A stretch of DNA of 54,512 nt from a virus (Duplodnaviria > Heunggongvirae > Uroviricota > Caudoviricetes): the IMG/VR virus record IMGVR_UViG_2529293142_000033. One strand, written 5' to 3'. Shown in pieces: positions 35,355 to 35,781 of the stretch; position 1 is the stretch's first letter; each line of letters starts with the position of its first letter. The notes beneath the pieces are model-generated. The model was not told the origin of the DNA, searched no databases, and was given only the letters and a program-made list of their open reading frames with translations. Made by a program: the position numbers and the translations under genes.

Positions 35355-35781
35355 TGATGAATGAGAAACAGACAGAAGAACTGGTGGTGACCCTGAAACG
35401 TCCGGTAAGGGATCCGGATACCAGGACGGAGTTCCGTGAGCTGCGCCTGAAAGAGCCGGTGCTGTTCCAGGCGGAGGACTTTCACCGCAATACCGCCTCA
35501 CTGGGCGCAATGGCGGCCATGCGTGAGCTGATTGCGGCAGTGGCGGGTGTGCCGTCTGCCCCGCTGAAGTTCATGGCGGTGTCCGATTACAAAAAGTGCG
35601 AACGGTTCCTGACGGGTTTTTTCCTGGAAGCCTGAGCCAGTGGCAGGCGAGGGCGGCTGAACTGACGTGGTTCTTTCGCTGGTCCCCGCGCGAGGCGTGG
35701 GGGCTGACGTCAGGGGAAATTCTCTGGTGGGCGTCGCAGGCAGCGCGGATCAACAGACTGAGGAGTGGCGATGGCGGGTAA
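35354..35781 (+). CDS. tail assembly chaperone, two-frame gene (short product 35354-35635; -1 frameshift extension to 35781)
   Basis: slippery heptamer T TTT TTC at 35609-35615 near end of first ORF; overlapping -1 ORF continues to 35781; position immediately upstream of tape measure gene. Confidence 0.7.

Follow-up and report, generated by a model that had tools for sequence, protein, structure and literature searches.

A very probable P2 E/E+E'-type programmed -1 ribosomal frameshift in the tail assembly chaperone gene of an Escherichia coli prophage with a Mu-like tail module

A short open reading frame lies between the tail tube gene and the tape measure gene of the prophage carried by IMG/VR record IMGVR_UViG_2529293142_000033, and the question that it raises is whether it encodes one protein or two, the second of them a longer product made by a programmed frameshift. 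The window that we analyzed is the whole 54,512-nucleotide stretch of this record. It is a segment of an E. coli chromosome in which the prophage adjoins dusA, and its tail region is found at 93-96% identity in 8 of 5426 complete E. coli genomes. From the letters of the window and a comparison with its relatives, we consider it very probable that the locus is a programmed -1 ribosomal frameshift of the tail assembly chaperone type, and of the P2 E/E+E' kind. The features on which the argument is built are the following.

33447 to 34949, plus strand: tail sheath gene, 500 aa (PF04984, PF17482, PF17481), which indicates a contractile tail.
34989 to 35354, plus strand: tail tube gene, 121 aa (PF10618 Tail_tube, E 4e-33).
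35354 to 35635, plus strand: chaperone open reading frame in the 0 frame ("G/E-like"), 93 aa, with its stop TGA at 35633-35635; PF10109 Phage_TAC_7.
35614 to 35620, plus strand: second in-frame heptamer G_GGT_TTT, overlapping T_TTT_TTC; a shift here would give the identical fusion sequence.
35617 to 35623, plus strand: slippery heptamer T_TTT_TTC, read as GGT TTT TTC in the 0 frame; the proposed -1 shift site.
35623 to 35781, plus strand: extension in the -1 frame ("T/E'-like"), 52 codons (PGSLSQWQ...RSGDGG) followed by TAA at 35779-35781.
35760 to 35765, plus strand: GAGGAG, Shine-Dalgarno sequence of the tape measure gene, within the end of the extension and 5 nt before the ATG at 35771.
35771 to 37738, plus strand: tape measure gene, 655 aa; an SLT lytic transglycosylase domain lies at the C-terminus (PF01464 SLT, E 2e-18; weak PF10145).
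37731 to 39161: DNA circulation protein gene, followed by baseplate genes that include Baseplate_J and Mu Gp48 homologues.

The chaperone open reading frame matches PF10109 with 29.7 bits (gathering cut-off 25; E 6.4e-7; profile positions 2-78 of 79) as well as phrog_166 tail (E 1e-14), and in the E. coli relatives it carries the annotation "phage tail assembly protein". The stop of the tube gene overlaps the chaperone start in an ATGA-type junction, and RefSeq annotates the same start for the tape measure gene in the E. coli EC12 relative. The pair of reading frames, the chaperone and the -1 frame that runs on to 35781, therefore sits between the tube gene (34989-35354) and the tape measure gene (from 35771).

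Direct reading of the chaperone 3' end in the 0 frame gives ...CTG ACG GGT TTT TTC CTG GAA GCC TGA. The preliminary description had placed T TTT TTC at 35609-35615, eight codons before the stop. An in-frame heptamer does exist, but that interval reads CTGACGG; the site lies 8 nt away, with its T-run at 35617-35622, and only three sense codons (CTG GAA GCC) separate it from the TGA. The overlapping G_GGT_TTT was absent from that description, and the two heptamers together lie 3-4 codons 5' of the chaperone stop. The long -1 reading frame had been recognized correctly, although it had been credited with 55 further codons: open from 35527 to the TAA, it has 52 codons after the heptamer (35623-35778), and 49 of its codons lie beyond the 0-frame stop. 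The overlap of the -1 frame with the tape measure start, also described earlier, is borne out, as the ATG at 35771 with its Shine-Dalgarno sequence falls inside the extension and the two share 11 nt.

In the mechanism that we propose, most ribosomes would translate 35354-35635 and stop at the TGA, yielding the 93-aa chaperone. A minority would slip back by one base while decoding GGT TTT TTC, with the P- and A-site tRNAs re-pairing on T_TTT_TTC or, one codon earlier, on G_GGT_TTT; these shifted ribosomes would then read the -1 frame to the TAA at 35779-35781 and release a 142-aa fusion. We infer that the shift takes place on the ribosome and at low frequency. The predicted fusion consists of chaperone residues 1-90 joined to a 52-residue tryptophan-rich extension (PGSLSQWQARAAELTWFFRWSPREAWGLTSGEILWWASQAARINRLRSGDGG), and its predicted junction tryptic peptide is FLTGFFPGSLSQWQAR. 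If the pair works as lambda G/GT and P2 E/E+E' do, the N-terminal part shared by both products would coat the tape measure protein encoded directly downstream, the rare extension would recruit the tube protein, and both the chaperone and the fusion would be absent from the virion. A model of the fusion made by AlphaFold2 without an alignment was unusable (mean pLDDT 43, pTM 0.24).

Relatives of the locus were found by protein-level tblastn; a nucleotide search with 34900-36000 against 50,697 phage records gave no matches. The collection comprises 91 loci from IMG/VR and GTDB species genomes and 6 from phage and E. coli collections and contig look-ups. About 70 distinct loci are represented, at 36-100% protein identity, from E. 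coli, Salmonella, Kluyvera, Citrobacter, Edwardsiella, Serratia and Xenorhabdus hosts and from two isolated phages. T_TTT_TTN is in frame in all of the roughly 70 distinct relatives, at the homologous place 3-14 codons 5' of the 0-frame stop, the phages phiNP and BZS1 (~44% identity) being among them. An extension of 48-55 codons in the -1 frame, which reaches or overlaps the start of the tape measure gene, is present in every distinct relative except one locus from Xenorhabdus hominickii (L084), in which the heptamer is present and the extension diverges partway, at a contig end; this locus was excluded from the statistics. The preliminary description had made its reading depend on conservation of the -1 frame in homologous phages, and such conservation is what we found across the distinct relatives. 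One locus with the look of a natural in-frame fusion (L073, IMG/VR UViG_2671180930_000005) was rejected as such, as an N is inserted after its TTTTTTG, at ~1695-1702 of a low-quality contig. The same gene has another N earlier, and its single-reading-frame look is an assembly artefact at a homopolymer.

The conservation extends to the letters of the site. None of the 38 distinct site contexts departs from the T6 run, and the codon before it always ends in T (GGT, AGT, TCT, GAT, GCT, CGT or GTT) and encodes any of six amino acids (G, S, D, A, R or V). The heptamer ends in G in 31 contexts, in C in 4, in A in 2 and in T in 1. The second heptamer G_GGT_TTT is seen in the sub-clade of the window (L001, L004-L010); GGGTTTT also occurs outside this sub-clade, in loci L051, L053, L069, L080 and L094.

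The extension itself has 13 invariant residues, five of which are tryptophans. Read in the -1 frame, its pairwise differences at codon positions 1, 2 and 3 are 0.24, 0.22 and 0.43, the same pattern as in the chaperone reading frame (0.26, 0.22 and 0.50). Its dN/dS in the -1 frame is 0.19-0.28 by the Nei-Gojobori method, close to the 0.11-0.24 of the chaperone reading frame, and the other two frames of the same DNA give 1.5-1.8. Judged by these substitution patterns, only in the -1 frame does the extension evolve like a protein. The heptamer taken alone carries less weight. The 21 late genes of the window contain 17 in-frame XXXYYYZ heptamers in 6609 codons, and the chaperone is the sole late gene with a heptamer fewer than 79 codons from its stop; a heptamer so near the stop is by itself a coincidence of about 2-3%, and the comparative data are decisive. 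We rejected the openness of the -1 frame beyond the stop in the other late genes as a control, as many neighbors overlap in that frame.

The position of the gene, the in-frame heptamer, a second reading frame without its own start and the conserved frames are all found here, and these are the features of the frameshifted tail assembly chaperone pair as reportedly defined by Xu, Hendrix and Duda in 2004 with lambda G/GT as the paradigm. The mechanism had been described earlier as the conserved G/GT type; a tail chaperone frameshift is supported, but the closest family is P2 E/E+E' and not lambda G/GT in the strict sense. A profile of 16 fusions from the family aligns with E+E' of phage KS14 over 120 columns (hhalign 95.4%, E 1.7e-8). 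Gp13 of this Burkholderia phage is annotated as a joined E+E' product (gp13/gp14), and the alignment spans both domains with the F-L/F-F shift sites in register. Both P88 and KS14 have an in-frame T_TTT_TTG, at ...N-F-L... and ...S-F-L... respectively, at the same spot as the site in the window.

The passages on P2 in PMC3091744 describe a 91-aa E and a 142-aa E+E' made from TTTTTTG, and they give no hairpin after the shift site in P2 and P2-like phages. The pair in the window resembles this system closely. Both pairs lie between the tube gene (FII in P2) and the tape measure gene (T in P2) of a contractile tail, and in both the -1 shift, which is proposed at our locus, falls on a T6 heptamer at homologous F-L/F-F residues within a few codons of the stop. 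The product sizes are 91 and 142 aa in P2 against a predicted 93 and 142 aa at our locus, both lack a downstream hairpin, and both belong to the same Pfam family, PF10109 ("E, or 41 or 14"). The likeness has its limits, as identity is only ~20% and the heptamer in the window ends in C whereas that of P2 ends in G. Moreover, the tail genes around the chaperone are Mu-like (DUF2635/Mup38, DNA_circ_N, Mu Gp48) and not P2-like.

Similarity is fainter when the extension is taken separately. The extension in the window had no match to PF06528 (Phage_P2_GpE) at E<=0.1; three of the 17 family extensions match this profile weakly (best E 9e-4), and the separately called -1 reading frame of one relative has a weak precomputed PF06528 match. 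In tblastn the extension gave weak matches to the E' regions of P88, Xuanwuvirus and KS14 (33-38% identity, E 0.1-8), and it also finds phiNP and BZS1. It matches phrog_10636 with an E of 2e-11. NCBIfam had no match for the chaperone, the extension or the fusion. A different resemblance, weak but repeated, is that of the extension profile to the plastid and cyanobacterial ribosomal protein PSRP-3/Ycf65 (PDB 2kt9 residues 35-73, E 0.0027), with the pattern YF.W...DAW..L...L..W...A.RIN.L. Of 17 family members, 5 match PF04839 and 4 match DUF6760 (PF20546). The likeness to PSRP-3/Ycf65 could be a chance similarity of a short helical motif.

In lambda G/GT the tape measure protein is bound by the part that the two products share, the tube protein is recruited by the extension, and both products are missing from the virion (PMC5009743). 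Lambda follows the logic proposed here: a gene pair just upstream of the tape measure gene encodes two products with the same N-terminus, and the longer one arises from an infrequent -1 shift at an X_XXY_YYZ heptamer close to where the first reading frame ends (PMC5009743). The lambda pair differs from ours in its G_GGA_AAG site, its non-contractile tail and its Pfam family, and no sequence similarity between the two pairs was detected. Phage Mu has a verified -2 shift, into the other frame, on a G-rich site in gp41/Mu_56 (record AF083977, citing PMID 15469818; PMC5009743). The position is shared in a homologous module of sheath, tube, chaperone, tape measure and DNA circulation protein, but Mu gp41 has no similarity to our family (hhalign probability 0.2%, E 0.33). 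We also rejected a -2 shift like that of Mu for the locus, as the +1/-2 frame in the window closes 8 codons beyond the chaperone stop and the conserved extension is in the -1 frame. On sequence comparison, the chaperone pair is of the P2 E/E+E' kind, set in a contractile tail module of the Mu type.

How strongly the site shifts may depend on what surrounds it. Tandem slippage on X_XXY_YYZ is shared by the site in the window with the dnaX and IS3-family signals, and most relatives have a Shine-Dalgarno-like GAGG at 13 nt; the copy in the window has neither this element nor a conserved downstream structure. A downstream stimulatory structure had been suggested earlier and was sought without success. 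When the downstream RNA was folded in four segments, the z-scores lay between -1.1 and +1.1, and the 47-77 nt that directly follow the heptamer scored 0.05 to 1.1, no better than shuffles. RNAalifold on 20 diverse relatives returned two invariant pairs at -0.64 kcal/mol with no covariation, and an Rfam search returned only a chance miRNA match (E 0.36). With the folding scores, the alifold consensus and Rfam all empty, we rejected such a structure.

The upstream GAGG is more regular. It stands at a fixed 13 nt upstream of the heptamer in 34 of the 38 distinct contexts, a spacing compatible with stimulation of -1 shifts of the Shine-Dalgarno type, and it encodes a conserved C-E-E/D in which Glu is nearly always GAG. 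At 35600-35605 the window has GAACGG in its place. The four contexts without GAGG, that of the window included, all have a heptamer ending in C or T, and GAACGG or GAGCGG replaces GAGG solely in the T_TTT_TTY clade, to which the window belongs. Stimulated -1 frameshift sites are recognized by an upstream Shine-Dalgarno-like sequence and/or a hairpin or pseudoknot at 5-9 nt, and the copy in the window shows neither. As no downstream structure or upstream Shine-Dalgarno-like stimulator is evident in this copy, slippage would probably depend on the heptamer alone and, without GAGG, its efficiency could be low.

Relative to most other members of the family, the clade of the window has a one-codon gap directly after the T-run, and as a result the site reads TTTTTTC, a variant of the TTTTTTG found in most relatives. 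Two relatives are intermediate: L099 has T_TTT_TTC with GAGG, and L101 has T_TTT_TTT without it. The H_HH.U_UU.Y class ranks with the most efficient heptamers in E. coli (PMC4066793), and U_UU.U_UU.C shifts at >0.1% without a stimulator, while U_UU.U_UU.G is not in that list (PMC4066793). The T_TTT_TTG that most relatives pair with GAGG is a weak shifter in E. coli. A compensatory re-tuning in this clade, with GAGG lost and a stronger T_TTT_TTC and an overlapping G_GGT_TTT gained, is conceivable, and we put it forward tentatively, as a rather unlikely explanation. The association amounts to about one lineage, and as the bases of GAGG at the same time specify conserved residues, it may be no more than coincidence. 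If the re-tuning were true and the ratio of products were held by swapping stimulators, these relatives would offer a natural series in which to study what sets the efficiency of a frameshift.

The extension could also be reached if RNA polymerase added one U on the T6 run and the edited mRNA were read normally. Such a +1U transcript gives the identical protein, so that the two routes cannot be told apart from sequence; the T-run is a homopolymer, and selection for an unbroken T-run would be expected in this case too. Bacterial RNA polymerase slips efficiently on runs of ~8-9 (reviewed in PMC5009743). The T6 of the window, and even the T7 runs of the close relatives L099 (GTTTTTTTC) and L101 (GATTTTTTT), fall below this length. 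The run is always in X_XXY_YYZ phase, and most relatives keep the Shine-Dalgarno-like GAGG at a spacing known to stimulate ribosomal -1 shifts. As the homologous TTTTTTG of P2 and other tail chaperone sites are also described as translational frameshifts, we regard transcriptional slippage as very unlikely. Whether the -1 reading frame is instead a separate small gene with its own start, as some gene callers and phrog_10636 treat it, can be judged from the available start codons. No ATG, GTG or TTG occurs within the extension in the window (35623-35781), and the sole candidate upstream, a GTG at 35596 that heads a 61-codon entry in the list of open reading frames, has no Shine-Dalgarno sequence. 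A canonical -1-frame start upstream of the heptamer is lacking in 31 of 69 distinct relatives, and the first start inside the extension is either absent or at codon 10 at the earliest, beyond the invariant W-Q. Five loci have a stop codon of the -1 frame immediately next to the heptamer (cTTAGTTTTTTG), which leaves a shift at the heptamer as the only way into the extension there. Homologous reading frames have been called as genes of 50-51 aa in P88 and L099, but the GTG call in P88 belongs to a family with an experimentally established E+E' fusion. An independent gene is therefore highly improbable in our judgment.

We find it scarcely credible that this genome makes just the 93-aa protein and that its heptamer and open -1 frame are a coincidence or a vestige. 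Taken by itself, an in-frame heptamer 10 codons or fewer from a stop would arise with a probability of a few percent, but the family-wide purifying selection and the invariant T6 exclude coincidence for the family. The prophage may be decaying, given the IS elements close to its end and the nonsense codon in one of its baseplate genes; the site and the extension in the window are nevertheless intact and identical to those of IMG/VR relatives (L005).

Against the -1 ribosomal frameshift, the reading that we prefer, stands the silence of the databases on its product. Only the short chaperone is annotated in the RefSeq (PGAP) entries for the E. coli relatives and in those of GenBank for Citrobacter phage phiNP and Serratia phage vB_SspM_BZS1; all of them leave ~135 nt before the tape measure gene unannotated and omit the fusion. 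A search with the fusion in a collection of 5.8 billion proteins gave seven matches, all of them 91-93-aa forms. Through this omission the proteomes of the whole prophage group lack a protein on which tail assembly probably depends. The main value of the result is therefore one of annotation, as the mechanism is well known in phages and has been missed by annotators in the group studied. The locus challenges no current view and is an ordinary, unannotated case of a well-known recoding class. The combination of a Mu-type contractile tail module with a P2-type chaperone frameshift (-1, on a T-run) would add a further example of mosaicism at the level of modules.

The preliminary description had also taken the site as a sign that the tail module is organized normally. 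This holds for the gene order, but the Mu gp44-like baseplate gene at 39158-40246 is interrupted by an in-frame amber codon (TAG, 39470-39472), which leaves the open reading frames 39158-39472 and 39482-40246. The EC12 protein WP_233679675 has TGG (W105) at this position and is otherwise nearly the same (359 of 363 residues identical, 99%). Owing to the amber codon the tail module is not fully intact and the prophage may be defective; the codon may reflect a defective prophage tail or a sequencing error. Given this codon, the tail module may no longer be under selection in the present host.

The EC12 copy is a mosaic prophage that combines a lambdoid Q/tRNA/lysis region with a lambda-like head and a Mu-like tail. 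In the window a cluster of four tRNA genes (16114-16423: CAT, Arg-TCT, Thr-TGT and Gly-TCC) lies just downstream of a homologue of the antiterminator Q (14975-15727), as in lambdoid and Stx-type prophages; the CAT tRNA is called Met by ARAGORN and Ile in the EC12 annotation. Between the tail fibre assembly gene and the integrase, an IS21-family element on the plus strand (46908-49210; IstA 46908-48449, with rve and Mu-transposase C domains, and IstB 48461-49210) adjoins an apparently truncated IS3-family element on the minus strand (49268-50199; orfA 49975-50199 and orfB 49268-49978, the latter with an rve domain). The EC12 relative has an alpha/beta hydrolase in place of these elements. An AraC-family regulator on the minus strand (50300-51130) is cargo with a low-GC-looking codon usage. 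A tyrosine integrase gene (52289-53386, minus strand) stands next to dusA (53475-54512, plus strand) and marks the end of the prophage and its attachment site.
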